In this document: piece by piece, positions 3,810 to 58,651 of the stretch
Layout of the letters: each line of letters starts with the position of its first letter
Numbering within the stretch: the stretch's first letter is position 1
NCBI GenBank assembly: GCA_027314915.1
Contig: DAHUZZ010000003.1
Location: forward strand, 64,815-128,814
Direction of reading: 5' to 3'
DNA: 64,000 nt
From: Thermoplasmata archaeon
GTDB lineage: Archaea; Thermoplasmatota; Thermoplasmata; Lutacidiplasmatales; UBA184
The notes under the pieces: model-generated
Database searches by the model: none
Told to the model about the DNA's origin: nothing
The model's input: only the letters and a program-made list of their open reading frames with translations
Position numbers and translations under genes: made by a program

Positions 3810-3914
3810 TGCTCCCGGCGGGAGTTTCCCCGCGAAGGCGGTCGGCCTTCGCGGCTTTGAACCCGCGTCAGAGGCTCGAGAGGCCTCTATCCTTGACCAC
3901 TAGACTACGGGAGC
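3810..3914 (-). tRNA. tRNA-Glu (anticodon CUC) with a 32-nt intron in the T-loop (approx. position 59/60); CCA not encoded
   Basis: Minus-strand read: GCTCCCG-TA-GTCT-AGTGGTCAA-GGAT-A-GAGGC-CTCTCGA-GCCTC-TGAC-GCGGG-TTCAAA-[GCCGCGAAGGCCGACCGCCTTCGCGGGGAAAC]-T-CCCGC-CGGGAGC-A. Removing the bracketed 32 nt restores a canonical GCGGG/TTCAAAT/CCCGC T-arm and a perfect 7-bp acceptor stem. The intron holds a 10-bp hairpin (CCGCGAAGGC/GCCTTCGCGG). Confidence 0.8.
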
Positions 3915-9006: not shown

Positions 9007-9101
9007 CCCTCCCGAGCCCGTCGTAAGTATCGCCTCCGGAGCGTCGCATCCCGGCTCCCCGCCCGGAGCAGCCTAGGACCACGAATTCATGCGGGCCCAC
9101 C

Positions 9102-9547: not shown

Positions 9548-9637
9548 CGATGCGACTTCCGGCCCGCGGTCACGCCGGCGGGGGGAAAAGGATGTCGGCC
9601 GATTCGCGACGATCCTCCCCGACGGTAGCATAGGTTC

Positions 9638-12600
9638 ATGGCCGACGATCCGCATCGTACCCTTCGCCCCGGGTGCCCCGCGGCCCCCCCCATGCGCACG
9701 GTACCGGTCGAGTACGATGACGACCGGCTGAACGACGAGGCCGAGGAGTACTGGCGGGCGCGCCACCTCCCCGCCGGCACCGATCCGGCGCGCCCGGCGC
9801 CCCCGGGGACCGTCACCCTCGAGGGGCCCGCCCTTCCGGCGACGGGTCCCCTCGCTCCCGCGGTGCGGGCGGCCCAGGTCGCTGCCGACATCGGGCTCCG
9901 CTACCTCCTCCTCACGGGACGATCGGTCCGGGAGCTCGCCTTCACGCTCGACGCCGCGGACGCCGGGCACGAGGCGCCCGACCGGCTCGGGATCTGGTTC
10001 GGCCGGCGGTTCCCCCGCGGGCTCCGGGACCCGGCCCCGGGGGGCGATCGGTCGCGGCCGCTCACGGCCCTGGCGGCCCAGGGGCTGTTCGTCGCCCGCG
10101 ACCTCCCGACCCGGGTCTGTCCGCGGTGCGGCCGGAACCTCACGCCCGAGCGCATCGCCTACCGCGAGTCGCTCCGCCCGGCGACCGTCGCGACGTTCCC
10201 GCTCCTCGGACGCGATCCCCCGCTCTCCGCGCTCGTCTGGACCGATGCCGCATGGAAGCTCCTCGCCACCGAGGCCATCCTGCTGCACCCGGACCGACCG
10301 TACGTCCGGGTCGCCTGGCGCCGGCGCGGTACCGCGCAGTCGGTGCTCGTCGCGCGGCATGCCCTTCCCGAGCTCGTGCGGTGGCTTCCCCGGGGCGAGG
10401 CGAGCGTGGAGGAAGAGCGCCCCGGCTCTCAGTGGGCGGGGGGGCCCTACCGGCACCCCCTGGGGGAGGAGATGCCGCTCCTGGCCGATCTTCCCGCCCC
10501 GTCGGGCTCGCTGCTCGCCTCTTCCGCGGTGAAGCCGTGGGGAACGGGGATCGTGGCGCTCGCGCCGGCGCACGGCCCGGCCGATGGGCGGGTGGCCCGG
10601 GAGCTCCGCCTACCGGCACGGTCCGTCCTGGCCCCGAACGGGGACATCCTCGAGGCGCCCCCGAGCGCCTACGCGGGGATGCCGCTCGCGACCGCGGGAT
10701 CGTGCATCCTGCGCGACCTGGAGGAATCGGGGGCGCTCTTCGCCCGGCCGCTCCGGGCGGCGGGACGACCCCACTGTCTTGAGTGCGGGACCGAGGTGGT
10801 GTGGCGCAGCGGCCGGGCGTGGTGCCTCGACCTGGACCGGATCCCCGACGCCGTACGCGAACGGTTCGGTCGGCTGCTGCCGGGCGAGCCGTTCCCCGCC
10901 CCCACGGCCGGGCTCCTCTGGCCCGTGAGCGGCTCGGAGCCTTCGGGCGACCCCGCCGCTCCGGCGCTGGCAGAATCCCCCGCGTGCGGTCGGGTATTCG
11001 ATCTCCCCGGCCCGGAGCTCTGCCCCTGCGGCCTCGAACGCCCGGTCGCGGTCCGCCGCGCCCTTCTGCCGGAGTTCGCGGACGCCCTCTCGGAAGCGCT
11101 CCAGCTCGGGCCGCTCCCCGTCGGGGGCCCGCTCTGGCTACACCTGCCGGAACGACGCCGGGTCCCGGCCCTCCTGCACCGACTGCTCGCGTGGCACGCC
11201 ACCGAGCTCCGGCCCCCGGAGAGCCGGGTCGTCCTCGTGCGCGGGGGGACGGGCACCGCCGACCCGGACCCTTCCTCGGATGCCGACCGGGCCGCGATCG
11301 TCCGCGCCGCCCTCCTTCCCACCGACCGCCGGGACCTGGCGACCGCGCGGGAGGAGGAGCGGGACCGCCTCCGTCACCTCTGGAGCGACGTCGGCCGCTT
11401 CCTCGACGCGGCCACGCGGGCCGGCGTTCCGCCCGACCCGCACCCCATCACGGCCTACCGTTCCGAGCTCCTGCTCGAGGACCGCGCGCTCCTCTCGGCG
11501 TTCGAGCGCATGCGGCGGGACGCGCTCGGGCTGATGGATCAGGGCCGATGGGGCGCCGCCTACGCCCGATCGACACGGTTCTACGACCGGGACTTCCGGG
11601 AGGACTACCTGCGGGCGGCGGCGGGCCGGTTCGACGATCGCGCCGGGGCAGATGCGCGGAACGCGCTGTTCCACGTGCTCGACCACGTCTACGGCCGGCT
11701 CTGCGAGCTCTGGGGTCCGATCCATCCCCGCACGACGGAGGCGATCCATCGGGCGATCCTGGGGGAGGGCGCGAGCCTGTTCGAGGGCCGGATCGCGCCG
11801 GTCCAGCTGTCGCTCCTCGACGAGGCGGCGGAGACGGCCGTCGGGCCCTGGCTCGAACCGGCCCGGACGATGCGCTCCGCCCGTCGGCGGCTCGGTCTCG
11901 GCGAGGACGCCCGCGTCCCGCAGGTCGTGCTCGCCGCCGACTCGGAGGAGGTCGCCCAGCGCCTGGCTCCCGAGCCCGAGCTGGGCGCCCGGCTCCTCGG
12001 GGCCGCGAAGGTCGTGCTCGCGTCGCCGAGGGAGCCGTGGACCGGGCTCGAGTACTCGATCCTCGCGGACGAGGAGGAGGTCCGGAAGCGGTTCCCCGCC
12101 TACCATCGGAAGATCGTGCAGCTGCTCACGACGATGGACCCGCGCCGGGTCCGGGAGGCCGTCCGTGCCGACAGCCTCACGGTGGGGCTCGAGAACACCT
12201 CGATCCGGATCCCCCCGGCGCTCGTGCGCGTCCTCGAGCGGCTCCCGGACCGGTTCGCCTCGGTGCCCTGGTCCCACGGAGAGATCCTCGTGGAGCCGCC
12301 GACCCCTCCGGGGGGCGACCGGCCCGCGCGACTGCCCCCGGCCGCACAACGGGTGCTCGGCCACCTCGAGCGGCGATTGCGCCGGACCGGCGGCGATCTT
12401 CCCCCGGGATCCGAGATCCTCCTCGGGACCGACCCCTCCGGCGCGGCCGGACTCGGCCCGTACCTCCCGCGGCTGGGTGAGCGCCTGAAGGGAGCGAACG
12501 TACGGATCGCGAGCGCTCCGGAGGAGTTCGTGGCCCGGGAGACGAGCACCGGACGGATGGGCCCCGGACGATCCTTCCGGGCCCGGATCCCCGGACGGCC

Positions 12601-13573
12601 CGCCGCACCGCCCCGTGCCCGGCGGCCGGAACCCCCTTCCCGGGGAACGACCGTGCCCCGGGGCGCAATCGAGCGGGCGCCGACCCGTGAGGAGGCCGAC
12701 GGCCGGGGAGCTGACTTCGCGGCGTTCGAGGCCGATCTCTCGGAGGTCACCGCGGACGGACCTCTGGGGCCGGCCAAGGTCGCGGCCGCCTGGGATGCGG
12801 GGTTCCGATCCCGGGCGGAGCTCGCCGAGGCCGACCTGGACCGACTCGCGAGCCTGCCGGGCTTCGGGCCCTGGGTCGCGCGGGAGTTCCTCGCGCGCAT
12901 CGCGCCCGCCCGGAGCGTGCCCGGGGTGGTGCCCGGTCCCGCCCCGCGGATCGAGGTCGGGGAAGCGCCCCCTCAGGCCACGGTCGTAGCTCCGATGACC
13001 CCTCCGGCCCGTACGGCACCCTCTCCCGTGGCCCCGGTACCCGACGGCGCCGTTCCGCGAACCGACGCGGGCGTCCCCGTCGACGCGAGCCTCGGCGCCC
13101 GGACGGCCGGCCCCCCTGACCCCGCGACCCCGCCGGCCGGTGTGCACCTCCTGCTGGCCCCCAACCGGGACGAGGCCTGGGATCGGTTCCTGCGGGCGCT
13201 CTCGCCCGGCGCGCCGGGGCTCTGGGTGGGGCGTCTCTTCCCCCGCGCCCTCCAGTCGGCGGGCTCCGACCACGACGTCCGGTTCCTGTGGCTTTCGACC
13301 GCCGATCGGCCGAACTCGATCCGGCCCTCCGACCTACCGGGGCTCCGGGTGGAGCTCGAGCGCCAGCTGGGTCCGGGGGGGATCCGGACCGTGATCCTCG
13401 AGGAGATCGAGTATCTGGCCGCGCTCCACGGGGTCGACGCCGTGCGCGAGCTGGTGCAGGCGATCGATGTCCTCGCGCGGTTCCAGAACGTGGCCGTCTG
13501 GGTCCCGCTCGATCCCGGGCTCCTCCCGGGAGACCCCTCCGTCCTGACGAGGGGGCTCGGGCCGGCGCCGTGA
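9638..13573 (+). CDS. Class Ia aminoacyl-tRNA-synthetase-like (IleRS/ValRS-type) pseudoenzyme fused to an HhH motif and a C-terminal DUF835-like domain
   Basis: Colinear aaRS landmarks: Rossmann entry [28 protein letters not shown] (HIGH position reads LAPA), CP1 zinc knuckle VCPRCGRNL, editing-domain-like [19 protein letters not shown] and [35 protein letters not shown], and an anticodon-domain-like helical region. No KMSKS ([11 protein letters not shown] at the equivalent place). C-terminus: [16 protein letters not shown] (HhH), then [23 protein letters not shown]...[14 protein letters not shown]...VWVPLDPG (DUF835-like). Confidence 0.8.
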
Positions 13574-19238: not shown

Positions 19239-20297
19239 CTAGCCGAGCGGCGCGCCGCACCGCGGGCATGTCGGGGTGCCGGGGCTGACGAGGGCGCCGC
19301 AGTACCGGCAGTTGACCTTGACCTCTTCGCGGACGACCACCTGCTGGACGGCCGGCTGGTCGGAGGGCGTGAGGTGGATCGCCGGCGGGGGCGGGCCCCC
19401 CGGCGGCGGCGCGTAGGGCACCCGTCCTCCCGCGGAGTGTTGGGGCAGCGACCGGCGGCGGGACCGCCGGGCCAGAACGACCACCACGATGAGGACGAGG
19501 ACCACGACGACGACCGCGAGGAGGACGTAGAGGAGCAGGTCGGAGGAGCTCCCGGACGTCGGCGGGGGCGGGGCCGCGGCGGCGGTCAGGGGGTAGCTCG
19601 TCGAGGTGACGACGAGCCGATCGATGAGGTCGAAGCCGTTCCCGCTCGCGTCCCGGTCCTGCTCGGTGTAGACGTACCCCACGATGTAGCCGGTCGCCGG
19701 GTCGAAGAACGCCTTCCACGTGTAGCTCGCGGTGAACAGGCCGTAGGAGTCGTTCCGCTGGTAGGACCCGTTGCCTTCGCCGAAGAGGGTGCGCGCGTAC
19801 CCCGTCGACGTGACGCCGACCGGGAAGGAGGCGTTCGTGGTGACGACGCTCATGGGGGTGTTCAACAGGACGAACCGCCCGCCGGTCCCGAGCGTGTTGT
19901 CGATGTAGAACCAGACGTAGGGCCGCGTGTAGCCCGTCTGGTTGTCCGTGCCGCTCACGTAGCGGAAGGTCACCGGCGAGAACGTGAACGAGCCGCTCGA
20001 GCTCCAGTGCTCCGCGTCGCCCTGGTTGTCCCGCCAGGAGTTGTTGTTCGAGTAGTACGCCGCCGCGGTCTGGTTCGGCAGCACCCCCGAGACCGAGATC
20101 GAGCCGTTCGTGAACGTGCCGTCCTGGTAGCCCGTGTAGTTGCCGGTGCCGTTGCCGACGACCGCCACCTCGGAGTACGCGAAGCGGTCCCCCGCGGCCG
20201 GAAGATGGTGCGCGGCCGGCGCGGGGTGGGCCCCCGCACCGAGGCTGCCGAGCAGCAGGGCCACGAGCAGCGCCGCGAGGAGCGCGCGGAGGATCAC
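19239..20297 (-). CDS. Secreted N-glycosylation-rich protein with single TM and cytoplasmic C-terminal zinc ribbon
   Basis: 352 aa starting VILRALLAALLVALLLG (GTG in a GTGA overlap at 20294-20297). Many N-x-S/T sequons. TM LLLYVLLAVVVVVLVLIVVVVLA. C-terminus CRYCGALVSPGTPTCPRCG. Confidence 0.7.
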   Translation of the reverse strand: MILRALLAALLVALLLGSLGAGAHPAPAAHHLPAAGDRFAYSEVAVVGNGTGNYTGYQDGTFTNGSISVSGVLPNQTAAAYYSNNNSWRDNQGDAEHWSSSGSFTFSPVTFRYVSGTDNQTGYTRPYVWFYIDNTLGTGGRFVLLNTPMSVVTTNASFPVGVTSTGYARTLFGEGNGSYQRNDSYGLFTASYTWKAFFDPATGYIVGYVYTEQDRDASGNGFDLIDRLVVTSTSYPLTAAAAPPPPTSGSSSDLLLYVLLAVVVVVLVLIVVVVLARRSRRRSLPQHSAGGRVPYAPPPGGPPPPAIHLTPSDQPAVQQVVVREEVKVNCRYCGALVSPGTPTCPRCGAPLG

Positions 20298-21835
20298 CCG
20301 CTGAACCCCCCCATCGAGTGGATGTGGCCCGGGTGCACCCCGCCGAGGCCGCTGAAGGTGGAGTAGTACGCCCCGTGGGTGACGAGCACGGGCAGGAAGA
20401 AGAACCTCGGGCCCGCCAGCCCCGCGAGCCCGGCGGGGGGCGGGACGACCCGGGGGGTCGCGTCGAGCTCGGTGATCGTCTCCGACCGGATCTCGTGGAC
20501 CATCCGCACGGCGAGGCAGATGAGCTCGGCCTGGGAGAGCGCGGCGGCGCGCCGGCCGATGATCCCGTAGGCCCTCTCGATCAGGTTCAACGACTCGTTG
20601 GCCTCGAGCACCGGCACCGAGGCCACGATCGCGGCCGCGACGAGCGGGTAGGCGAGGTAGGCGCCGATCCCCCGGAGGAGGATGGCGAGCTTCGTGTCCG
20701 TGCCCTCGGGGGGCAGTTCGGAGACGGTGAGGTAGGCCGAGGCGAGCTCGACGTCCTCGGAGGCGGTGTAGCCCCACTGCGTGAACTTGCCCCGCCAGGC
20801 CTGGAACTTGCCGGCGAGGGCGTCCGGAGGAAGGTTCACGATGGCGAGCAACGCCGCCGCCTCGTAGGAGGGCGTGGACCGGAGGAACCGCTCGAGGTTC
20901 GGCACGGCGAACGAGCCGTCGGTCCGCTGGGCGAAGCAGAGGACCGAGGCGATCCCGAGGGAGGAGGCCGCGGGCACGCCGAGCTGCTCGACGGCCGGGA
21001 CCAGGGCCCGGAGCTGCGGGAGCACCGTGTCGAGCGGCCGCGGGACCGCCGTCAGGATCTCGGAAGCCATCAGGCGGTTCTCGTCGTTCTTCGAGAACGG
21101 GCCGAGCTGGCCGTAGGTCTCGAGGAACTTCTGGACCGAAGCGGCGGGCTCCGCGGTCTGGCGCGCGAGCCCGATCGAGATCGCCCAGAGGTAGGACCGG
21201 TCCGCCCCCGGGATCGCGCTCGCGACCGTACCGAAGCACTCCGAGCTGCGGAGGGCGTTCGTCTCGAGCTCCTGCTCGAGGTCCTGCGACTGCTTCCAGT
21301 AGTCGGCGAAGCTCTTGTCCGAGACCCGGTAGAGGCGGAGCCCGAGCTCGCGCATCTGGAGAAGACCGAAGCCCGTGAGGGCCACGTACCCCCCCGGGTA
21401 GCCGGTGGCGGCATCGTAGATCGACTTCGCGGACATCAGATCGGCGAACGCGGCCTCGCGCTGCCGGAGCTCCGCGTCGAGCCCGGCGAGCGCCTGCTCG
21501 TCCTGGGCCAGCCGCGCCGCGTCCGCGGCCCGGTGCTTCCCGCCCGCCAGGTGGAACAGGATCGAGTGGGTGTGGCGGACCTCGCCCGCCACCTCCTGCG
21601 CCTTGGCCGCCCGCGCGGCCTCCTCGGCGCGGAGCGCGTTGCCGGCGCCGTCCAGCCCGCCCCCCGAGGACGTGCCGGCGATCCGCGCCCCCAGCTCCGC
21701 GTAGGCCGGTGGCGTCAGCTGCCGGAGGAGCCCGGCGGCCTCGAGGACGCTCAGGTCCTCCGGCGGCAACGGGGTCGAGATCTGCCGCTGGCTCGCCTGA
21801 AGGAGGAAGTCGTAGACGGCCTGACAGTTCGCCAC
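20294..21835 (-). CDS. Hypothetical 513-aa mostly helical protein
   Basis: Normal amino-acid composition. GTG start 1 nt after the upstream stop. Gly/His-rich C-terminus. No family recognised. Confidence 0.7.
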   Translation of the reverse strand: MANCQAVYDFLLQASQRQISTPLPPEDLSVLEAAGLLRQLTPPAYAELGARIAGTSSGGGLDGAGNALRAEEAARAAKAQEVAGEVRHTHSILFHLAGGKHRAADAARLAQDEQALAGLDAELRQREAAFADLMSAKSIYDAATGYPGGYVALTGFGLLQMRELGLRLYRVSDKSFADYWKQSQDLEQELETNALRSSECFGTVASAIPGADRSYLWAISIGLARQTAEPAASVQKFLETYGQLGPFSKNDENRLMASEILTAVPRPLDTVLPQLRALVPAVEQLGVPAASSLGIASVLCFAQRTDGSFAVPNLERFLRSTPSYEAAALLAIVNLPPDALAGKFQAWRGKFTQWGYTASEDVELASAYLTVSELPPEGTDTKLAILLRGIGAYLAYPLVAAAIVASVPVLEANESLNLIERAYGIIGRRAAALSQAELICLAVRMVHEIRSETITELDATPRVVPPPAGLAGLAGPRFFFLPVLVTHGAYYSTFSGLGGVHPGHIHSMGGFSG

Positions 21836-21836
21836 G

Positions 21837-23051
21837 TTAGAGGTCGAGTATCGGGAACGTAAGATATAGCTCTCGCTCGGACAGCGCGTTGCGGACCTCG
21901 AGCTCCAGGCGGCCCGGCGCCCGGCGGAGACGCAGGAAGGGGTCCGTCGCGAGCGCGCGCTCGAGGAGCGATTCGAACCGCCCCTTCCGGGGGCCGCCGG
22001 GGCCGAAGCGCCGGCTCCGCTCGGCCTCCAGCTGCTCGTAGGCGAACATGCCCTCGTACAGCGAGCGGTAGATCTGGTCCTCGATCTTCTCCCGGACCGC
22101 GGCGCGTCCGACGGTGACCTCCTCGATGCCCTCGAGGTCGACGAAGTGGACCGTCCCGTCGGGGGCGAGGACGGCGTCCTTGTCGAGCCAGACGTCGTGG
22201 TAGTCGAGGCCGCGGAACTCCTCCGGCGCGGGTCCCCGGCGGAGGCTCCGCGCGAAGAGGGTCAGCATCGCGAGCGCACTCCTCATGAAGTTCACCTCGA
22301 AGCCGTAGGCGCGGGCGGCGGTATCCACGCCGAACTGGTCGAAGACGCCCGCCGCGTCGGCGCCGACGGTGGTGCGCGCGTGGAAGTAGATCCGCACGTT
22401 CGACGGGACCAGGCGAAGCTCCTGGACGATGCGGCCGGGGAACCGCCGGTACCAGTGGATCCCCCGCACGGCCGCCTCGAGTTCGGGCGGCAGGTAGGAG
22501 ATGCGGACCACGGGGGCGATCCGGAACCCGTTCAGGTTGGTGAGATCGGCCCGCTCCGAGACGCTCAGCGCCTGGCTCGCGTGCCCGAGCCCCTGCCCGC
22601 CGTACGGTGAGCCCCGGAGCCAGAGCTCCCCGGTGATGAACCGGGCCGGGGCCCCGGTCGGAGCCGCGCTCAGCCGCCGCCGCGTCTCGGCATCCTCCGT
22701 GAGCTCGAGCACCGTGGCGAGGTCGAGCGGCCGGTCCGCGAACGGATCGAACGCGGACCCGACCCCCTTCACGGAGAGATAGTACGGGACGCCGTCGAGG
22801 GTGGCGATCGGGTCGGGCCGGACCGCGCCCCGGTTGTCGTCCTCGAGGAACTCCCCCCGTTCGACCGGGCTCTCCCGAAGGAGCGGCGCGAGGCCCGGGG
22901 GCACGTACACGCGGGCGAACGACTCGGGAACGATCCCCAGGAACTGCGGGTTCACCCTCCCCTCGGCCGGGTAGCCGAGGAGGGTCAGGGGGGTGCCGCG
23001 CAGCCGGCGCGGGGCGGCCGTCCCCGTCCTCCCCACCGGTACCGGATCCAT
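21837..23051 (-). CDS. Hypothetical protein with possible protein-kinase-like/phosphotransferase fold
   Basis: 404 aa. YYLSVKGVGS (beta3-Lys-like) and YHDVWLDKDAVLAPDGTVHFVDLEG, which resembles the HxDxxxxN catalytic loop plus a DFG-like metal-binding strand of APH/kinase-like enzymes. Assignment by eye only. Confidence 0.65.
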   Translation of the reverse strand: MDPVPVGRTGTAAPRRLRGTPLTLLGYPAEGRVNPQFLGIVPESFARVYVPPGLAPLLRESPVERGEFLEDDNRGAVRPDPIATLDGVPYYLSVKGVGSAFDPFADRPLDLATVLELTEDAETRRRLSAAPTGAPARFITGELWLRGSPYGGQGLGHASQALSVSERADLTNLNGFRIAPVVRISYLPPELEAAVRGIHWYRRFPGRIVQELRLVPSNVRIYFHARTTVGADAAGVFDQFGVDTAARAYGFEVNFMRSALAMLTLFARSLRRGPAPEEFRGLDYHDVWLDKDAVLAPDGTVHFVDLEGIEEVTVGRAAVREKIEDQIYRSLYEGMFAYEQLEAERSRRFGPGGPRKGRFESLLERALATDPFLRLRRAPGRLELEVRNALSERELYLTFPILDL

Positions 23052-36272: not shown

Positions 36273-37085
36273 TCAGCCGATGTACCCCAGGTCCTCGCGC
36301 GGGGCGCTCGGCTGCGGGCCGGAGGGCTTCTGCTCGGCCTCGTGGATCTTCTGGGCGATCCGGTCGATCTCGCGCGCCTTCTCCTCGAGGTCCGAGAGGT
36401 CGAGCTCGAGGTTGAGGATCTTCATGAGCACCTTGAGCACCGCCTCCGCGCTGCGGGGATCGACGAAGTAGCCGGAGGTCTCGCCCATGAGGCAGGCCCC
36501 CTCCATCTCGAAGAGCCGGCCCAGCCCGAGGAAGAGGCCGCTCGCCCCGATGAGCCCCCCGCCCGGGTCGTTGCGCGAGAAGACCACACCGTGCTTCTTC
36601 ATCGCCTCGACCTTCGCGGAGTTGGTGGCGGCGCCGAGGACGCGCGGCGACTCGACCAAGTGCCCCTGCGCGAACCCGGCGAGGGTGTACAGCTCGCGCA
36701 CCCCCATCCCGCCGACGAGGCTCAGCACCCGCTCGGTGAGCTCGTACTGGCCCTCGGGCGAGATCCCCTGGTAGTCGCCCCCCAGAAGGATGAGGTCGCG
36801 CTGGCCGGTACCCTGCGCACGGTAGTAGGAGAGCTCGTTCGACACGAGCCGGATCGTGCCGTCCTCGTTGACGTAGACCTGGGGCGGGAAGAACTTCGAA
36901 TGGACCGTGGCGAAGCTCTTCGCGGGGAGCTTCTCCTTCAGGTAGTCGGCCGCCAGCTTTCCAACGTTGCCGACGCCGGGCAGCCCCTCGATGAGGATCG
37001 GATCCTTGAGCTTGACCTGCTCGTGGATCCGGATGACCACATCCTCCACGCGATTCCCCTCGTCGGTACGACACGGGGGCGACAC
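36273..37085 (-). CDS. PAC2-family proteasome assembly chaperone-like protein
   Basis: 270 aa. ILIEGLPGVGNVGKLAADYL and GETSGY blocks typical of archaeal PAC2/PbaA-like proteins. Confidence 0.8.
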   Translation of the reverse strand: MSPPCRTDEGNRVEDVVIRIHEQVKLKDPILIEGLPGVGNVGKLAADYLKEKLPAKSFATVHSKFFPPQVYVNEDGTIRLVSNELSYYRAQGTGQRDLILLGGDYQGISPEGQYELTERVLSLVGGMGVRELYTLAGFAQGHLVESPRVLGAATNSAKVEAMKKHGVVFSRNDPGGGLIGASGLFLGLGRLFEMEGACLMGETSGYFVDPRSAEAVLKVLMKILNLELDLSDLEEKAREIDRIAQKIHEAEQKPSGPQPSAPREDLGYIG

Positions 37086-37193
37086 TTAACGATTCGGGCG
37101 CGCGCGGCGGCCTTGCTTACGCGGACGAAACCACCCCGCCGATCGGCGGGCCGACCCGGTCCTTCCGCGGAGGTCGCGCCGCTCGGGCGCGCC

Positions 37194-37949
37194 CTAGAGC
37201 GGCACGACCTCGATCCCCTTCTCTCCGACCGAGGCGCGGTAGATGCGGGCGAGCTCGGGGTGGTTCCGGACCTTGCGGACGATGATCTTGGGCGCGATCA
37301 CGCTCTCCTGCTCCTCGAGCTCGGAGGCGAGGACGAAGTCCGCGACGAGCTCGAGCAAGGCGAGGGTGCGGAGCTCGGGCACCTCGGGACGGACCACGAC
37401 GAGCGCGCTGCCCCCCACGGCCGCGGCGCGTTCGCGGATCTGGCGCGCGAACCGCTCCGCCCCGGCGGCGCCGAGCTCGTCCAGGAGCGGATCGATCGAG
37501 TCGAGGACGTACCGGAAGGGGCCGTCGAGCGGCGCGATGTCGGTCACGAGCCGCCCCCCCACCGCGGGGGGCGCCCGTCGCGGGGCGGCGCCGCCCACCT
37601 CCACCTGCGCTTCGGCCAGGGTGAGCCCCTTGGCGCGCGCCCGCGCGACCGCGAGCTCACGGTGGAGCAGGTCGGACCAGAGCTCCTGTTCGAGGTCGAT
37701 GACGTTCACCCCGGAGGATTCCCACCCGAGCGCGTCGAAGGCCCGGGTCACCTCGGCGGCCGTTTCGTGGGTCGCGTAGTAGTACACGGGGACGGACGCG
37801 GCGCCGGCGTGCGCGGCCTGCTTCGCGAGGAGGTGGCCCAGCCCGCCGCCGTCGTCCTCGATGAGCCCGAGCCAGCCGGCGGGCAGCGCGGACTCGAGCG
37901 GGCGATCCAGCTCGGGTAGGTCGAAGATCGGCACGCGTCCGCCGCTCAC
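37194..37949 (-). CDS. KaiC/RecA-like protein with degenerate Walker A
   Basis: 251 aa. Colinear with the KaiC-like fold, but the P-loop position reads IEDDGGGLGHLL (no GK[ST]). GTG start in a GTGA overlap with the upstream stop. Confidence 0.7.
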   Translation of the reverse strand: MSGGRVPIFDLPELDRPLESALPAGWLGLIEDDGGGLGHLLAKQAAHAGAASVPVYYYATHETAAEVTRAFDALGWESSGVNVIDLEQELWSDLLHRELAVARARAKGLTLAEAQVEVGGAAPRRAPPAVGGRLVTDIAPLDGPFRYVLDSIDPLLDELGAAGAERFARQIRERAAAVGGSALVVVRPEVPELRTLALLELVADFVLASELEEQESVIAPKIIVRKVRNHPELARIYRASVGEKGIEVVPL

Positions 37950-38539
37950 ATCCCTCCCGAGTCGGCGCGCACCTCGATCGTCTCGTCCACGGTGAGGGCG
38001 AGGATCTGGTCGACGAACGTGGCGGACTCCTCGCTCACGGCGAGGAGCACCGTGAGCACCTGGCGGGCCTTGAGGTTGTTGAGCAGGATGTGGAAGAACT
38101 CGCTGAGGAGCGCCGGGGGGTTGTGGATCGCGAGGGCGTTCACCGAGTCGATGATGACCACGGGCCGCTTGCTCGGGTGCTTCTTGAGCAGGTACTCGAC
38201 CCGCAGCATGATGTTCTCGAGCATCCGCGGGCTCTCGATGTAGGAGGCGTTCTCGAGGGGGTTGCGGAAGTCCATCATGATGTGGCTGATGGCGTCCACG
38301 AAGCTCAGCCGGTCGGCCGGAACGTCGAGCGCCTGGGCGATCGTCCAGATGAGCGAGGCGGGGTTCGTCACCGAGACGTAGATGGTGTGGCCGTCCACCT
38401 CGACGTTCCCGCCCTGGATGGTCGCGTTGAGCGCGAGGAGGTAGTTGTCGGCGTAGTTCTCCGGCGCGAGCTTGAGCGCGACCGCGCTCCCGCCCGAGAG
38501 CTCCCGGAGGCGGTCGCCGAGGTCCGATTCGCGCGACAC
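37946..38539 (-). CDS. P-loop-less KaiC/RecA-like (DUF835-like) protein
   Basis: 197 aa. No Walker A. Retains the Walker-B-like strand RPVVIIDSVNAL and the downstream VLTVLLAV strand. Confidence 0.65.
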   Translation of the reverse strand: MSRESDLGDRLRELSGGSAVALKLAPENYADNYLLALNATIQGGNVEVDGHTIYVSVTNPASLIWTIAQALDVPADRLSFVDAISHIMMDFRNPLENASYIESPRMLENIMLRVEYLLKKHPSKRPVVIIDSVNALAIHNPPALLSEFFHILLNNLKARQVLTVLLAVSEESATFVDQILALTVDETIEVRADSGGM

Positions 38540-38542
38540 GGC

Positions 38543-39319
38543 CTACCCTTCCTCGGTGAGGCCGCCCTTGAGGTGGGGCGCCAGCAGGAGGCCGATGGGC
38601 GTCATCTCGACGACGTACTGCGCCCGGGAATGGGGGGTGCCGCGCATCTTGATCACCTGCAGGACCCGCAGGATGTCACCGTGCCGCCGGGCGTTGCCGA
38701 GGAGGAAGAGCCCGTCGACGATCGCCTCCTCGACCCCCCGGAGGGAGTAGCGGCCGGCGCCCGGCCCGATCTCCGAGACGAGCAGCGTGGTGCAGTTGTG
38801 CGCCGCCAGGATCTGCGAGAGTTTGAGCATGAAATCCCGGACCCGCTCCTCGCGCTGGATGCGGTAGGCGAAGCTCGTGAGCGAGTCGAGCACGACGCGC
38901 TCCGCCTTGGACTCGGTGAGGAACCCTTCGAGCGTCTGGAGGAAGAGCTGGATCTCGTCCGGCCGCATCTCCTCGTGGTCGAGCCCGAGCTTGTCGTAGA
39001 GCACCGGGATGTCGACCAGGAGGAGCTTCCCCGAGGTGATGAGCTCGGGACGGAAGAACTCGAAGGAGCGCATGTTCTCGATGAGCTTCGAGGTGGGCTC
39101 GGTCACCGAGAGGAACAGCGAGCGCTCCCCGCGCTCCGCCCCGTGGATCAGGAACTCGAGCGAGAGGGTGGTCTTCCCGGTCCCGACGCTGCCGGCCACG
39201 AGCACGGTGTTGCCCCGGGGGATCCCGCCCTCGAGGATGTTGTCGAGCGCCTCGATACCGGTCGGGCACCGGTCGCGAGCCGTCCCCGCCGGAGCGGCGC
39301 CGGAATCGCCCGCGGCCAT
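38543..39319 (-). CDS. KaiC-like RecA-superfamily ATPase (intact motifs)
   Basis: 258 aa. TGIEALDNILEGGIPRGNTVLVAGSVGTGKTTLSLEF (Walker A) and ERVVLDSLTS (Walker B). Confidence 0.85.
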   Translation of the reverse strand: MAAGDSGAAPAGTARDRCPTGIEALDNILEGGIPRGNTVLVAGSVGTGKTTLSLEFLIHGAERGERSLFLSVTEPTSKLIENMRSFEFFRPELITSGKLLLVDIPVLYDKLGLDHEEMRPDEIQLFLQTLEGFLTESKAERVVLDSLTSFAYRIQREERVRDFMLKLSQILAAHNCTTLLVSEIGPGAGRYSLRGVEEAIVDGLFLLGNARRHGDILRVLQVIKMRGTPHSRAQYVVEMTPIGLLLAPHLKGGLTEEG

Positions 39320-39343
39320 GCCGGAAAATGGGAGTGCCGCGCG

Positions 39344-41914
39344 CTAATGGCCTTTGTCACCGTCGCGCCGTATATCTCCGACCGCGGGGCGGAGGAGGAG
39401 CGCCTCGAGCCCCGGGCGCTCCTCCGGCGTGGGGGGCGGGATCCCCGGCTCCCCGTGCTCCGGCGCCTGAAGCCACCAGACCGTCCCCGCGGGGTCGGTC
39501 GTGCTGCGGAGGAGCAGCCCGGAGCGCTTGAGCTCGGAGCCGAGCGCCCGGCCGGATTCGGAATCGAGACCCAGGAATTCCCGGAGCCGGGGCAACGACA
39601 GTGGGAGCACATGGCCCGGAGGCTCCTGGCCGAGGAGCTCCCGCACGAAGAGGAGCGCGGTGCGGAGGCTCGCGTCGGGGCGGAGCTCGGCCGTTCCTCG
39701 GGCCGGGCCCGGCGAGGGGGGGGCCGCCGGAGAGGTCTCCTCCGGTTCGGCGACGGATCCCCAGCGCGCGAGGGTCCGCTGGCGGGCGCGGCCCCGGCGC
39801 TCGGCGCCCAGCTCGGCGGGAGGGAGCGGCCGGATGGCGACCCAGTCGACGGAGTTCCCCTTCCCGATGAGCACCGCGGCCTGTCCGCGCGGCAACCCGC
39901 TCAGCCGGTCCACCGTCAGCGGCTCGGCCCAGCGCGAGAACCGGTGGGCCTCTTCCGGATCCCCCCGGAAGAGGATCAGGTCCGCGCTGTTCGTCACGAG
40001 CGCCTCGTGCAGCTCCGGCCCCATCGACCGGAGCGCCTGGGTCGCGGTCCAGACGTGGATGTTGCCCCGACGTCCGAGGCGGAGGAGCTCGAGCAGGCCA
40101 TCGTGGGCGTACCATTGGGCCTCGTCGAGCGCGAGGAACACCTTCTCCGGCCGCGGCCGGGCCAGAAGCTCGCTCCAGACGAGCGCGAGGTCGACGGACA
40201 GGAGCTGCCGGGCGGTCGCCTCGCCGACGACGGGCGCCTCGCCGGTGATCACCGTGATGCTCCGGGGTTCCCCCGCCTGCTTGAGCTCGTAGCGCGCCCC
40301 CGCATCGCAGAGCATGCGGCGGAGGACCCGGTTCCGGGCGATCTCCCCGAGCACCCGCCGGCTGCCGGCCACCTCCTCGGGCCGCTCCCGCGCGAGCCCC
40401 CGCAACGACTCGACGGCGCCACGGAGCCCGGAGGGCACCTCGAAGGGGAGGGAGCGCTCCAGCGCGAGGAGCTCGTGGGCTTCGACCAGGGTGCCCCGGG
40501 GGAGCCGGGCCGCGAGCGCGAGGGTCCGGGTCAGGACCTCCTCGATCCGGGGCCCCCAGAAACCCGGGTCGGAGAAGTGCTGGCCCCGTACCCGTCGCAG
40601 GGCGGCGACGAGCTCGTGGAGCGCCCGATCGGAGGGGCCCGCCCCCCCGGCCGCCGCCTGGACGGGTCGGAGCGCGTTGAGGCCCACCGGCGATTCCGTG
40701 GGCGAGATCCAGGTGACCCGGTCGAGGAGCTCCGGCGTGAGACCCGCGAGGAAGCGGCGACCGGTGTCGCCGATCGGATCGAGGAGGAGGACCGATCCCC
40801 AGCGGACCGCCCCGGTCAGCAGCCGGATCAGGAGGCTGCTCTTTCCCATCCCCGTCTCGCCGAGGATGAGCACATGCCGCCCCTGGTCCGGCTCGATCGG
40901 CAGTTGGCTTCGCCGCCCCCGGCTGCCGATCCCGAAGGGCAGTCCACCGGCGATCGGGTCGGACTCCGGACCCCCGGCGCTCCGGACCCAGGGTGCGGGG
41001 AAGATGCCCGCCATCTCGGGCTCGGAGAGGAGGATCCACCCGGGGCGGGTGCGGAACCCCCGCATCGGGCGGAGGAACCGGAGGCCGTTCCCCCCCTCGA
41101 GCCGGACGGTCGCGCTCAGGATCCCCGCGACCCGATCGGCCAGGAGCTCCGCGCTCGCCCCTCGCGCTCGTACCTCGACCCGGGCGCCCCAGGGCAGCGC
41201 GCTCCGGCGCGCCTCGCTGCCCTCCCGCACCGCGCGTTCCCACGCCGTGATGAGCGCCGGCCGGACGGGCCCCGCCGCCCGGGCCGCGGTCGGGGCCGAT
41301 TCGGCGTAGAGCGGCGAGATCCGGTTCGGCACGCGCCCCGGCCGCAGCTCCCAGACGACGTCGACCCCCGGGGCCACGGCGGTCAACCCGAGCAGCGCGG
41401 CATCCGACCACGGCGGGCGGTCGACGGCGAACGGAAGGGGCAGGGCGACCGGGCCGGCCAGGCCGCCGAAGCGGACCGACGGAGCGAAGGGATCGTCCCG
41501 GACGGTGTCCACGACCCAGTGGCCCGGCGGGTAGGCCGGCAGGACGGTCTCCCGGAACCAGGCGGCTGCCGCGGGGTCCCCGGCCGTCGCGCGTACCCCT
41601 CCCGTCGGTCCCGAGGTCCAGCGGAACGCGAACCCGAAGGCGCCTCCGCTCGCCACCCGGAGCGCCGAACGGATCTGGTCCCGGAACCGCCGTTCCTCCT
41701 CGAAGGACGGCGTTCGGGGATGCGGGCGGAACCGCCAGCCCCACGTGGGGGTTCGGACCTCGGCGGGGAGCGTGGCAAGGGCCACGGCGGGCGACTCGCC
41801 GACCTGCCCCAAGTGCCCGACGCCGCCGACGAACGCTGGACGATGCCCGTCCCGTGCGGGGCGCGCGGCCGGGACACGTTCAAGTAGCCCGGCGCTCCCG
41901 TCGGGGCGGTCCAC
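39344..41914 (-). CDS. FtsK/HerA/VirD4-like (DUF87/TraD-type) P-loop ATPase with large N-terminal domain and C-terminal wHTH-like tail
   Basis: 856 aa. Walker A HVLILGETGMGKSSLL followed by LLLDPIGD, Walker B VFLALDEAQWY, then VWTATQ. The start is uncertain because 41914 overlaps the divergent DRG region. Confidence 0.8.
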   Translation of the reverse strand: MDRPDGSAGLLERVPAARPARDGHRPAFVGGVGHLGQVGESPAVALATLPAEVRTPTWGWRFRPHPRTPSFEEERRFRDQIRSALRVASGGAFGFAFRWTSGPTGGVRATAGDPAAAAWFRETVLPAYPPGHWVVDTVRDDPFAPSVRFGGLAGPVALPLPFAVDRPPWSDAALLGLTAVAPGVDVVWELRPGRVPNRISPLYAESAPTAARAAGPVRPALITAWERAVREGSEARRSALPWGARVEVRARGASAELLADRVAGILSATVRLEGGNGLRFLRPMRGFRTRPGWILLSEPEMAGIFPAPWVRSAGGPESDPIAGGLPFGIGSRGRRSQLPIEPDQGRHVLILGETGMGKSSLLIRLLTGAVRWGSVLLLDPIGDTGRRFLAGLTPELLDRVTWISPTESPVGLNALRPVQAAAGGAGPSDRALHELVAALRRVRGQHFSDPGFWGPRIEEVLTRTLALAARLPRGTLVEAHELLALERSLPFEVPSGLRGAVESLRGLARERPEEVAGSRRVLGEIARNRVLRRMLCDAGARYELKQAGEPRSITVITGEAPVVGEATARQLLSVDLALVWSELLARPRPEKVFLALDEAQWYAHDGLLELLRLGRRGNIHVWTATQALRSMGPELHEALVTNSADLILFRGDPEEAHRFSRWAEPLTVDRLSGLPRGQAAVLIGKGNSVDWVAIRPLPPAELGAERRGRARQRTLARWGSVAEPEETSPAAPPSPGPARGTAELRPDASLRTALLFVRELLGQEPPGHVLPLSLPRLREFLGLDSESGRALGSELKRSGLLLRSTTDPAGTVWWLQAPEHGEPGIPPPTPEERPGLEALLLRPAVGDIRRDGDKGH

Positions 41915-41922
41915 GGACGCGG

Positions 41923-43044
41923 ATGTCGTCGCTCGAAGAACAGATCGCGGAGATCGAGGAGGAGATCCGCTCCACCCAGTACAACAAGGCGACCCAGCTG
42001 CACGTCGGCCGGCTCCGGGCCAAGCTCGCGGTCCTCCGTCTGGAACGCGAGAAGCGTGCGCACGCGAAAGGCGGCGGGGGACTCGGGTACGCCGTCCGGA
42101 AGAGCGGCCATGCGACCGTCGGCCTGGTCGGGTACCCCTCCGTCGGCAAGTCGACGCTCCTCAATGCGATCACCGGCGCCGAGAGCGAGATCGGGGCCTA
42201 CGACTTCACGACGCTCTCGATCATCCCCGGCATGCTCCGCTACCAGGGCGCGTCGATCCAGATCCTCGACATGCCCGGGCTGGTCCCGGGGGCGGCCAAG
42301 GGGCGGGGGCGCGGCCGGGAGGTCCTGAGCGTCGTCCGGTCCGTCGAGCTCATCCTCTTCCTGATCGACAAGGATCACACCGACTTCAAGGGCCTCGTCG
42401 ATGAGCTCGAGAACGCCGGGATCCGGATCAACGGGCGACCGCCCAAGATCGTGGTGACCCCGGCCGACCGGGGCGGCGTCACGGTCTCGAGCACCGTGCG
42501 GATCACGCACCTCGCGGACGGCATCGCGGCCCAGATCGTCCGCGAGTTCGGGATCCACAACGGGAGCGTGATCCTGCGGGAGGATGCCACCGCGGACCAG
42601 CTCATCGACGTGCTCGCCGGCAACCGGGTGTACGTCCGGGCCATCCTCGGGGTCAACAAGTCCGACCTCCTGACCCGCCCCGAGATGGAGGCGCTCAAGG
42701 CGCGGCTCAAGCCCTTCGTGCCCGTGTTCGTCTCCGCGCGCTCCCGTCAGGGGATGGCCGAGCTCGTCAACGCCGTGGGGAAGGCGCTCGAGTTCATCCG
42801 GGTGTACCTCAAGCCCCCCGGCCGCGAGGCGGACCTCGAGGAGCCCATCATCCTGCGTCGCGGGGACCGGGTCGAGGACCTGCTCCGGCGCCTTCCCACC
42901 GACCTGGGCGTCCAGTTCAAGTCCGCCCTCGTCTGGGGCCGCAGCGCCCGCTTCCCCGGCCAGACCGTCGGCCGGGAGCACCTCCTCGCCGACGAGGACC
43001 TGATCACGATCGTCATCCAGCGGGGCTCCCGGCCCGGGGGATGA
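41923..43044 (+). CDS. DRG-family GTPase (OBG-like, C-terminal TGS domain)
   Basis: 373 aa. G1 GYPSVGKST, G3 DMPGL, G4 NKSD. N-terminal EEIRSTQYNKATQLHVGRLRAKLA is typical of DRG/Rbg. Confidence 0.9.
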   Translation: MSSLEEQIAEIEEEIRSTQYNKATQLHVGRLRAKLAVLRLEREKRAHAKGGGGLGYAVRKSGHATVGLVGYPSVGKSTLLNAITGAESEIGAYDFTTLSIIPGMLRYQGASIQILDMPGLVPGAAKGRGRGREVLSVVRSVELILFLIDKDHTDFKGLVDELENAGIRINGRPPKIVVTPADRGGVTVSSTVRITHLADGIAAQIVREFGIHNGSVILREDATADQLIDVLAGNRVYVRAILGVNKSDLLTRPEMEALKARLKPFVPVFVSARSRQGMAELVNAVGKALEFIRVYLKPPGREADLEEPIILRRGDRVEDLLRRLPTDLGVQFKSALVWGRSARFPGQTVGREHLLADEDLITIVIQRGSRPGG

Positions 43045-57001: not shown

Positions 57002-58489
57002 TCAGCTCGTGTTCTCCACCACCACGGTGAGGTCGTAGCTGCCCGGGGTCGTCGGAGCGGTGATCGTGAGGGTCCAGACCCCGGTCGAGTCCGCCCCCAC
57101 GGCGAACGCGCCGGTGGGCGCCACGGAGGCGAGGAGCCAGGGGCTGAGGACCCCGTTCACCTGGTAGTTGTGGGTCACGGTGTCGGCGTTGAAGATGAAC
57201 ATCCTGAGGATCATCTGCGCCCCGGGCGCGAGGTAGGCCGGGGGCGCGGAAAAGTTCGGCCCGACGGTGAAGAACGGGTTGGTGTCGTAGATGAGCTCGT
57301 AGCCGACGAACGCGACCACGACCACCGGCGCCGGGCCGCTCGAGACCGAGCCGTGGATCGAATAGGTGCCGGGCCCCGGCGCCCCGAGCTCCACCGTGAG
57401 ATTGACCGAGCCGTTCGGTCCGAGCTCGAACGGAAGGCCGGGGTAGGAGCTCTTGACGGCGAACGGGCCGAGGACGCCGAGCGATTCCACCTCGACGGGA
57501 ATGGAGTCGTTCGACTGGAGGGCGAGGTGGACGGCGAACGTGGCGTTCGGGACGACCTGCGCGGGCGGCGGCGCCGCCCGGACCTGGAGGTAGCCGGAGG
57601 CGTTGCCCTGGTAGGTCACGGTCCAGTTCATCGCGGGGAGCGAGACCGGGCCCGGTGGCGTCGAGCCGATCACGGTGCCCAGGACCGCGTAGGAGCCCGC
57701 CAGGCTCGGCACCCCGACCGTGATCGTGATGGTGCGGGCGACCGCGTGGTCGAACGTCGCGGGGAAGGACGGGCTCGACCCGCGGAGGATGAACCCGTTC
57801 GTGAGCTGGATGTTGTCCACCTTCGCGACGCAGCCGTCCGATTCGCAGACGGGGGTGACCTCGACCGAGAGGTTCGCCTCCGAGCCCGCCACGACGCGGT
57901 CCGGGCCGACGATCCCCACGGTGCCGACGATCACATTGCGGCCGGTGAAGTTCTCCGACAGGAGCGTCACCCAACCGGCGAGGCTGCCGCCCGGAGGCGG
58001 GACCGATCCGTTCGGGTTCGGCGCGGAGGCGGGACGCAGGACGCCGCCGTAGAGCACCGCGGTCGCGAGGCCGGCGACGACCACGAGGAGGATGATCGCG
58101 ATCGTGAGCCACCTCCGCCGCGAGGGCGGCGGGACCGTCTCCGAGGCCGACGGGTCGACGACCTCCGGGCTCTCGTCCATGCACGTGCGGGAGGGGGACC
58201 CCCCGTCGGAGGGGACGAGGAGGGCCCATCCTGAAAAAAGTAGCGGGCCCGCTCCGCCTCCGGCGCGCCCGACCGGGCGGACCCCGGTCGCGGGCTCGTA
58301 GCCGAGGTGGGCGACCACCACGAGGTAGGCCGCGATCGCCACCACGACCACGGCGAGCACGAGGTACCACCCCGTGCGGTTCGGAGGTTCGAGTTCGACC
58401 ACCGAACGACGCGGAGGGGGGTTGGGCGCGGCGGGAGGCGGCTGGGCCTCCCGCTCGATGACGGTCCCGGTCCGCTCGTCGAGCGTCAC
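57002..58489 (-). CDS. Membrane-anchored cell-surface protein with beta-sandwich-like repeats and many N-glycosylation sequons
   Basis: 495 aa. Two hydrophobic anchors (WYLVLAVVVVAIAAYLVVVA; WLTIAIILLVVVAGLATAVLY). An internal ATG (MDESPEVV) could be the true start. T/S/G/V/P-rich ectodomain. Confidence 0.7.
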   Translation of the reverse strand: MTLDERTGTVIEREAQPPPAAPNPPPRRSVVELEPPNRTGWYLVLAVVVVAIAAYLVVVAHLGYEPATGVRPVGRAGGGAGPLLFSGWALLVPSDGGSPSRTCMDESPEVVDPSASETVPPPSRRRWLTIAIILLVVVAGLATAVLYGGVLRPASAPNPNGSVPPPGGSLAGWVTLLSENFTGRNVIVGTVGIVGPDRVVAGSEANLSVEVTPVCESDGCVAKVDNIQLTNGFILRGSSPSFPATFDHAVARTITITVGVPSLAGSYAVLGTVIGSTPPGPVSLPAMNWTVTYQGNASGYLQVRAAPPPAQVVPNATFAVHLALQSNDSIPVEVESLGVLGPFAVKSSYPGLPFELGPNGSVNLTVELGAPGPGTYSIHGSVSSGPAPVVVVAFVGYELIYDTNPFFTVGPNFSAPPAYLAPGAQMILRMFIFNADTVTHNYQVNGVLSPWLLASVAPTGAFAVGADSTGVWTLTITAPTTPGSYDLTVVVENTS

Positions 58490-58651
58490 CGGCGGGAGCT
58501 GGTTCCCGGACCTCGGTAGGGCACGACGGGGTCCGCCCGCTGACCGACGTGGAGAAGGAACGGAGAGGTCGTTACCCCCCCGGTGCGTGCGACGGCCCCG
58601 GGACCGGCCCTGTCGGTAGGTTCATCGTCCCGGCACCGGTCGGCGACATCC

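Follow-up and report, generated by a model that had tools for sequence, protein, structure and literature searches.

Within a 64,000-nt stretch of DNA (the window; 72% GC) from a metagenome-assembled genome (MAG) of an uncultured soil archaeon of the Thermoplasmata, four co-oriented genes on the minus strand, here called g1 to g4, encode an ATPase of the FtsK-HerA superfamily (g1), an intact KaiC-like ATPase (g2) and two KaiC-fold proteins that have lost the P-loop (g3 and g4). Our main finding is that the conserved unit is the trio g2-g3-g4, an old and widespread module of signalling type, and that g1 is a clade-specific neighbour of this module, possibly a functional one. The trio as a unit is well supported. 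That it works as a switch with g1 as its functionally linked client or output is the best explanation we can offer, but a tentative one.

All four open reading frames (ORFs) were confirmed: g1 (39344-41914, 856 aa as called), g2 (38543-39319, 258 aa), g3 (37946-38539, 197 aa) and g4 (37194-37949, 251 aa). The spacings, 24 nt at g1|g2, 3 nt at g2|g3 and a 4-nt overlap (-4 nt) at g3|g4, are those reported in a preliminary description of the cluster made from the sequence alone, and every motif quoted there for the four proteins was found in the translations. GC content at third codon positions (GC3) is 0.91-0.98 in the called frames, and orthologues of each gene were recovered from 17 GTDB genomes and 80 metagenome contigs; this coding bias and the abundance of orthologues show g1-g4 to be real genes and not chance ORFs. 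The organism had been guessed to be archaeal, which agrees with the neighbouring genes for ribosomal protein L15e, fibrillarin, Nop5 and PAC2 and with homologues of the window proteins being named 'Thermoplasmata archaeon'.

The KaiC/pseudo-KaiC trio

The g2 protein contains the motifs GSVGTGKTT (Walker A, 39167-39193) and VVLDSL and scores 183.7 bits against the Pfam KaiC model (PF06745; cutoff 26.6). When its profile was compared with PDB sequences, KaiC was matched at E = 4.9e-68 and RadA only at about 1e-5. Residues K49, T50, E74, D145, K224 and R226, invariant in 18 orthologues, align with catalytic positions of the KaiC CI domain. Judged by these motifs, g2 is unambiguously a single-domain KaiC predicted to be fully competent, in line with its earlier designation as a canonical KaiC-like ATPase. 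Two more specific identities were rejected. Circadian KaiC has two domains (CI+CII, about 500 aa) vs the single 258-aa domain of g2, the circ_KaiC model gives 94 vs a cutoff of 546, and no KaiB-like gene lies nearby. For ArlH (FlaH), the score is 53.6 bits vs a cutoff of 215 (model NF052589), and an archaellum operon context is lacking, no arl genes having been detected in a gene-content scan which covered most (not all) of the window ORFs.

The shortest of the three proteins, g3, contains the strand VVIIDSVNAL and no P-loop. Its AlphaFold2 model (predicted local distance difference test score (pLDDT) 87.2, predicted template-modelling score 0.87) gave PH0284, KaiC and SSO2452 as top Foldseek matches (E about 1e-6, query-based template-modelling score (TMq) up to 0.70), and the Pfam KaiC score (25.0 bits) is just below the cutoff of 26.6. 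The profile-profile match to g2 is weak on its own (E = 0.052), and a g3 profile found no match among PDB sequences. Asn59 stands in place of the catalytic Glu, the Asp of Walker B (Asp131) is still present, and the chain stops before the hairpin that carries the K-x-R finger; g3 is thus a truncated version of the fold.

The full-length counterpart, g4, has DDGGGLGH (37833-37856) in place of Walker A. It matches the g2 family in hhalign with 94% probability (E = 1.5e-7, 223 columns), PDB KaiC at 6.5e-14, and the Pfam family DUF7504 with 27.6 bits (cutoff 27). Neither the Lys nor the Thr of Walker A is present in any of 18 g4 orthologues (e.g. GTPGSGSH, GQSGSGLP, DDGGGLGH), and the same two residues are missing in 18 of 18 g3 sequences. 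In the g4 orthologues E62, D150 and K226 are invariant and R228 nearly so; K226 and R228 align with K224 and R226 of g2, i.e. with the K-x-R finger. Since the fold is kept and the loss of Walker A is conserved, as expected for inactivated KaiC (iKaiC) domains, g3 and g4 are KaiC-fold pseudo-ATPases, and the preliminary assignment of g3 as a RecA-like protein without a P-loop and of g4 as a KaiC-like protein with a dead one holds. In public annotation, g2 appears as 'KaiC', g3 as 'hypothetical', 'KaiC/GvpD/RAD55 family' or, wrongly, 'FlaH', and g4 is unnamed. A perfect 16-nt palindrome, CCCGCCGATCGGCGGG, is situated at 37135-37150, just past the stop codon of g4; it is not evidence for a terminator, a candidate which was rejected, the 108-nt spacer after g4 folding no better than shuffled sequences (z = -0.35).

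A search of the full library with the g3 profile yielded 822 representatives. Many of these are stand-alone proteins of about 190 aa, and some form the C-terminal domain of DUF835 proteins or of giant TPR/SNAP proteins; a g3-like inactivated KaiC domain is the last one in three of the latter (P0235, P0240 and P0249; 920-1776 aa), of which one is encoded by an Altiarchaeota MAG. On this basis g3 belongs among the DUF7504/DUF7090-like inactivated KaiC domains. Outside the clade of the window, KaiC plus g3-like plus g4-like trios were found in L028/L029 and L031, and KaiC plus g3-like pairs in L026/L027 (Methanomassiliicoccales), L030 and L032. These modules have junctions of 0 or -4 nt and occur in five unrelated neighbourhoods with 37-60% GC, and in three of the five (L026/L027, L028/L029 and L030) one or two Pilin_N (archaeal type IV pilin) genes adjoin the module. 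Their P-loops are lost alike (GPPGAGLE or GPPGAGTG in the g4-like proteins, none in the g3-like ones), and because the same dead P-loops are seen in such distant orthologues, the inactivation is of ancient date and has been maintained. We also noted that a CRISPR-Cas locus of type III-A (Cas10/Csm) lies a few kb downstream of the module in L026 and that, at L028 1-4305 (minus strand), a gene for a giant TPR protein (at least 1435 aa), unrelated to g1, is divergent from the KaiC trio.

Hetero-oligomers of RecA-fold paralogues with degenerate sites are represented by Elp456, whose type of complex assembles as 2:2:2, and by the Rad51-paralogue complexes. The trio resembles them in that three RecA/KaiC-fold paralogues are encoded together and only some are catalytically competent, but this is an analogy only: Pfam echoes of PAXNEB in g2 (2e-4) and of Iki1 in g3 (0.013) are below cutoff and due to generic motifs, and membership of Elongator was rejected, the top 50 structural neighbours of g3 being KaiC, PH0284 and SSO2452 and not Elp5 or Elp6.

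Closer relatives are the archaeal KaiC signalling hubs, in which iKaiC domains act as partners (PMC5847659, citing Makarova, Galperin & Koonin 2017); CirA is another KaiC-like regulator (PMC10983859). As in these hubs (Pfam DUF835, MEDS, DUF7504, DUF7090), a single-domain active KaiC is encoded here together with P-loop-less KaiC-fold proteins; g4 scores at the DUF7504 cutoff, g3 has relatives fused to DUF835 and giant TPR proteins, and the pilin genes near the module in other lineages parallel the occurrence of KaiC-family ATPase genes near archaeal type IV pilus loci (PMC4858521). The principle of an active KaiC with inactivated partners, on which the preliminary description had built, is therefore not new in kind and already known, to the extent that PMC5847659 relates it. 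What differs from the hubs as they appear in that source is that there are two types of pseudo-subunit, in a fixed and translationally coupled order, and that one clade has a VirB4/TrwB-like ATPase upstream.

As a mechanism for this translationally coupled KaiC/inactivated-KaiC module, we suggest that g2, g3 and g4 assemble into a mixed ring or stack of RecA type which acts as an ATP-driven switch. In such an assembly g2 would be the sole subunit able to bind and hydrolyse ATP; g4, which has lost its own P-loop and kept the trans-acting Lys finger (plus the Arg in the clade), would complete the ATP site of a neighbouring g2; and g3, lacking P-loop, catalytic Glu and finger, would be a purely structural or adaptor subunit.

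g1, a sequence-isolated ATPase of the FtsK-HerA superfamily

The g1 ORF exists as described, but the length of 856 aa is probably overstated. A distance of 8 nt separates the called start, GTG 41914, from the codon that is likely to be the ATG (41923) of the divergent DRG-GTPase gene, the model shows residues 1-54 as disordered (pLDDT about 33), and alignments of orthologues begin at about residue 50-60; for these reasons the true start is probably one of the in-frame alternatives TTG 41812 and GTG 41785, about 35-44 codons downstream. At their longest, the ORFs of g1 and the DRG gene overlap by 61 nt (window 41854-41923), and with the DRG ATG at 41923 and g1 starting at 41812 or 41785 the divergent spacer would measure about 110-137 nt.

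In an AlphaFold2 model (pLDDT 84.9), for which 51 family members were used, g1 has four parts. An N-terminal domain of mixed alpha/beta type with long helices (residues ~58-320, 40955-41743, minus strand) is confidently modelled and family-specific; it had resisted assignment in the preliminary description and still does, as a profile of 18 orthologous N-domains matched nothing in Pfam or among PDB sequences. It is followed by a RecA-like ATPase core (residues ~325-720, 39755-40942, minus strand) with an all-alpha insertion (~416-548). The core contains the Walker A motif GETGMGKSS (352-360; 40835-40861), LLLDPIGD (375-382) and the Walker B motif LALDEAQ (594-600; D597/E598). In 51 members of the family G352, E353, T354, G355, G357, K358, S359, D379, P380, G382, E598, R615 and Q626 are invariant, R615 being the candidate Arg, and D597 is conserved in at least 90% of members. 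The tail, earlier called wHTH-like, is modelled as a winged helix (residues ~746-816, 39467-39679, minus strand) of H-E-H-H-E-E topology with pLDDT above 90, tethered to the core by a disordered linker (727-744); R789 and G792 are invariant in it and L774, R778, L795 and W813 nearly so.

Among sequence models, Pfam DUF87 (HerA central domain) reaches 28.7 bits (cutoff 23.2) over residues 345-405 only, and public annotation reads 'DUF87/HerA domain-containing'. Other Pfam models are below cutoff (TrwB_AAD_bind 13.5 vs 20.5, TraG-D_C 12.6 vs 22, FtsK_SpoIIIE 13.8 vs 24), no NCBIfam score is near its cutoff (TIGR03743 23 vs 366, HerA_antiphage 13.1 bits vs 800), and no VirB4 model of either collection gave an above-cutoff match. 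Among PADLOC models, mad8 of the MADS system matches residues 326-684 (E = 4.9e-13, 47 bits). In Foldseek searches of PDB, full-length TrwK/VirB4 ranks first (E = 1e-12, 815-829 aligned columns, template-modelling (TM) score 0.35-0.37), followed by DndH-C, HerA-NurA, TrwB, TdpAB and the VirB4 C-domain; the probability is 1.00 for TrwK, DndH-C, HerA, TrwB, VirB4 and TdpA, and the target-based scores (TMt) are 0.61-0.66 for TrwB, 0.66 for the VirB4 C-domain, 0.65 for DndH-C and 0.54 for HerA. Among viral models the best matches are the VirB4-sized ATPases of large Bacillus phages (phage G gp156, E = 2e-29, 851 columns). The full-length alignments of the modelled structure suggest a VirB4-like two-domain layout.

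The motif set together with a RecA-like core superposable on known members places g1 in the FtsK-HerA superfamily, as had been claimed. With VirB4 (TrwK), VirD4 (TrwB), DndH-C and HerA it shares Walker A, the DPxGD strand, the Walker B DE, a core with an all-alpha insertion and a two-domain length similar to that of VirB4; it differs from them in having no transmembrane anchor, no type IV secretion system, relaxase or nuclease partner among the window ORFs scanned, an extra C-terminal winged helix, no curated sequence family beyond the P-loop region, and a distribution confined to one Thermoplasmata lineage. None of g1-g4 has a transmembrane segment (the highest 19-residue Kyte-Doolittle mean in g1, 1.49, falls within the ATPase core). 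The motor plus gamma domain layout of FtsK resembles that of g1 by analogy only. HerA proper was rejected: the N-domain is mixed alpha/beta and not a HAS beta-barrel, no nuclease gene is nearby, and the HerA_antiphage score is as given above. A VirD4/TraD/TrwB coupling protein was rejected for want of a transmembrane segment, although the helical insertion (416-548) is present; the curated models, as noted, are below cutoff. FtsK/SpoIIIE was rejected on its Pfam score and the same lack of a transmembrane segment, only the linker-borne C-terminal winged helix being analogous. For VirB4, the long alignment stands beside the low TM score, and no type IV secretion genes are present among the window ORFs scanned.

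The g1 family comprises 64-66 clusters, all from Thermoplasmata, with a sharp score cliff. A search with the family profile retrieved no weaker relatives beyond the same 64 proteins, and PDB sequences gave matches at the level of the P-loop only. In plasmids, only T4SS-coupling/DUF87 proteins of about 25% identity were matched (T4SS, type IV secretion system), and in phages nothing. We conclude that g1 is a soluble protein, equipped with a tethered winged helix, and that it is a new and sequence-isolated member of the FtsK-HerA superfamily, in its VirB4/TrwB/DndH-like branch.

Conservation of the neighbourhood and the standing of g1

The neighbours of g1-g4 are archaeal housekeeping genes. Downstream of g4 on the same strand are genes of the PAC2 family (36273-37085), Methyltransf_28 (MT28) and Toprim, and further downstream those for ribosomal protein L15e, a SpoU methylase, FtsY/SRP54 and prefoldin. 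Divergently upstream of g1 are the DRG GTPase and HIT genes, and then those for fibrillarin (Fib), Nop5, a PurF-like amidotransferase, ribosomal proteins P1/L10/L1 and aIF2-alpha.

When GTDB species genomes were scanned, 17 loci were recovered, all of Thermoplasmata. Each has g1-g2-g3-g4-PAC2-MT28, and most also have DRG-Fib-Nop5 on the upstream side and Toprim and L15e on the downstream side; their proteins are 37-42% (g1), 58-68% (g2), 56-69% (g3), 35-42% (g4) and 66-78% (PAC2) identical to those of the window. A metagenome scan added 80 loci, in which g2 comes next after g1 in 55 of the 56 informative cases and the context is the same throughout, and six further contigs, looked up singly, agree with the g1-g4 synteny. 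In all, about 100 related loci retain g1-g2-g3-g4 plus the whole housekeeping neighbourhood of about 15 kb, in nearly all cases in the order Nop5-Fib-DRG|g1-g2-g3-g4-PAC2-MT28-Toprim|L15e. The co-conservation of the four genes expected from the preliminary description is therefore seen, but it is not separable from that of the whole region. Because the entire region is conserved, the adjacency of g1 and the trio counts as one evolutionary event and not as repeated evidence, and from synteny alone it does not follow that the two are functionally linked.

The junctions g2|g3 and g3|g4 measure 0-10 nt or -4 nt in 17 of 17 genome loci and are never interrupted. At g1|g2 the genes are on the same strand with a gap of 24-39 nt in 10 of 16 genome loci (those without an insert). 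Moreover, g1 remains beside the trio in four loci which lack the upstream DRG/Fib/Nop5 block (L001, L008, L009 and L013), and g1 without the trio was not encountered in the loci examined. From these three observations we infer that g1 may be a client of the trio.

Several results weigh against this link or against details of the mechanism proposed. The adjacency reflects a single origin, all g1-bearing loci sharing one housekeeping context, and no g1-like gene is present in any of the five contexts in which the module occurs outside the clade. The g1|g2 junction admits an antisense DUF1697 gene (~187-198 aa) in one subclade (L002, L003, L005, L006, L015, L022 and L023), a Zn-ribbon/DUF6114 gene in L025, and inserts of unrelated ORFs without Pfam matches in L010 (4.5 kb) and L062 (~3 kb). 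Co-evolution was assessed by the mirror-tree method with 44 non-redundant loci. Every raw correlation falls within 0.83-0.92; for g1, the partial correlations with g2, g3 and g4 (0.28, 0.07 and 0.40) are not above those with PAC2, MT28 or DRG (0.27-0.38). Within the trio the highest partial correlation (g2-g4) is 0.60, yet that of PAC2-DRG is 0.61, so that the method is not discriminating here. As to the finger of g4, Arg228 is Thr or Lys in distant orthologues and Lys226 alone is universal. The rate of evolution of g3, on the other hand, speaks for the trio: in the clade it is as low as that of g2 and of the housekeeping genes DRG and PAC2 (mean distances: g3 0.31, g2 0.29, DRG 0.30, PAC2 0.26). 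No other gene of the block evolves as fast as g1. Of the four-gene operon originally described, the translational coupling of the trio stands, whereas the indivisible unit of four genes does not, given the modules without g1 and the inserts at g1|g2.

The most economical reading is nevertheless that g1, a soluble ATPase of hexamer type related to VirB4/TrwB and most likely a nucleic-acid translocase or remodeller, would act as the trio's clade-specific client or output, placed directly upstream of the trio in one Thermoplasmata clade and presumably co-transcribed with it in this genome; this is the weakest step of the mechanism. A precedent exists in the archaellum, where the KaiC-like ArlH acts on the hexameric motor ATPase ArlI. 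The likeness lies in a KaiC-like protein partnering a hexameric motor ATPase (and some g3 relatives have been auto-annotated as FlaH by JGI); the differences are the low ArlH score of g2, the lack of arl genes, and the position of g1 in the VirB4/TrwB-like branch and not among the ArlI/PilB secretion ATPases. With this analogy in mind, we favour, tentatively, a trio switch with g1 as its linked client. A bolder version, in which the three KaiC paralogues, one catalytic and two of pseudo-subunit type, form an obligate hetero-oligomeric ring, a prokaryotic counterpart of the Elp456 or Rad51-paralogue assemblies, and this ring, in the clade, docks on and gates an orphan soluble VirB4-like translocase with an FtsK-gamma-like winged helix, as an undescribed chromosome-associated machine of the core genome, is unlikely.

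The rival that has to be taken most seriously, though we find it somewhat doubtful, is that the genes are neighbours only: the KaiC/iKaiC trio would be autonomous, and g1 an unrelated orphan ATPase held in place by housekeeping synteny in the same way as PAC2, Methyltransf_28, DRG and fibrillarin. The conserved Nop5-to-L15e order in nearly all loci, the trios or pairs without g1 in five other contexts, the insertions at g1|g2 (an antisense gene among them) and the absence of an excess co-evolution signal are all consistent with it, but the shared strand and short gap in the insert-free genome loci, the attachment of g1 to the trio where DRG, fibrillarin and Nop5 are missing, and the lack of any observed case of g1 apart from the trio are not what it would lead one to expect. 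Much less credit can be given to a role in DNA repair or recombination, with RadA-paralogue-like mediators (of aRadC type; one active and two inactive as in Rad51-paralogue complexes) serving a HerA-like translocase. Although RecA-superfamily proteins SSO2452 and PH0284 are among the structural neighbours of g3, g1, with its winged helix, resembles HerA-NurA, DndH-C and TdpA, and the locus belongs to the chromosomal core and is inherited vertically, the g2 profile matches KaiC far better than RadA, neither a nuclease (NurA, Mre11) nor Rad50 is encoded near the cluster, and in other lineages the module adjoins pilin genes and not repair genes; this role is improbable.

Very improbable, in our judgement, is a type IV secretion, DNA-uptake or pilus machine with g1 as a VirB4-type assembly or translocation ATPase and the trio as an ArlH-like regulator. 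The full-length matches of g1 to TrwK/VirB4 and to VirB4-sized phage ATPases would suit it, as would the Pilin_N genes beside the module in L026/27, L028/29 and L030 and the known proximity of KaiC-family genes to archaeal type IV pilus loci (PMC4858521). The scanned ORFs of the window, however, include no pilin, secretion, VirB6/CedA-like, TadC/ArlJ or prepilin-peptidase gene, g1-g4 are without transmembrane segments, the pilin-adjacent modules are without g1, and the VirB4 and TrwB models of Pfam and NCBIfam remain below their cutoffs. The least probable reading by far is anti-virus defence or mobile-element cargo on a HerA-like platform, which the preliminary description had offered among other roles and which the context has already largely refuted. 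It could appeal to the mad8 match and to DndH-C, TdpAB and an anti-phage HerA complex, all defence proteins, as structural neighbours of g1. But mad8 alone matches g1, so that MADS and HerA-based systems were rejected in the PADLOC comparison: the other mad genes and an effector (nuclease, Sir2 or similar) are absent, PADLOC HerA models give E of at least 0.019, and g3 and g4 have no PADLOC match. In about 100 loci the genes have been inherited vertically at a fixed position within a ribosomal/snoRNP core region, plasmid matches are only distantly related and phage matches nil, the scan detected no integrase, transposase or defence gene, and there is no composition anomaly (GC 0.68-0.76 across the window). 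In line with the preliminary description, which knew of no named system with this composition, none with g1-g4 was found among NCBIfam families, PADLOC systems or literature reports, Makarova et al. 2017 being represented in the latter by its citation in PMC5847659.

Other features of the window and implications

A long stop-to-stop frame with coding-type GC3 at 9629-13573 (plus strand) probably contains more than one gene. Its C-terminal part (~13184-13519) matches DUF835, a domain of inactivated-KaiC type, with E = 1.9e-7 and 31.4 bits (cutoff 33.1), and Anticodon_1 and HHH_5 matches are found further upstream; the frame may thus hold a second component of KaiC-hub type 24 kb from the cluster. 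A 1508-aa frame at 4546-9072 (minus strand) has a very strong coding bias (GC3 0.96) and no Pfam match at E<=1e-5, and the same lack of matches applies to the minus-strand frames 1038-3125, 20294-22261 and 57002-58621. The only RNA gene detected in the window is a tRNA-Glu (CTC) at 3844-3914 (minus strand), whose Rfam score of 29.4 barely reaches the gathering score of 29; Rfam gave nothing relevant in or near the cluster.

Three elements appear to be new: the fixed trio with two types of pseudo-subunit, the orphan family of VirB4-like winged-helix ATPases, and their association in one Thermoplasmata lineage. KaiC-like ATPases have been proposed as the main signalling hubs of archaea, yet for almost none of them have the partners and the stoichiometry been defined. 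The trio is a clean case, with a fixed order, translational coupling and one live plus two differently dead subunits in genomes of 37% to 72% GC, and it yields a concrete prediction on the assembly of a mixed ring and on the interface at which ATP would be hydrolysed. The g1 family, for its part, is a new, sequence-isolated one of the VirB4/TrwB/HerA branch outside any secretion or defence context. If g1 is not coupled to the trio, the unit to study is the trio and not a four-gene 'operon', which is still useful to know; if it truly is coupled, this would be the first KaiC-type switch controlling a motor of the DNA-pump type.

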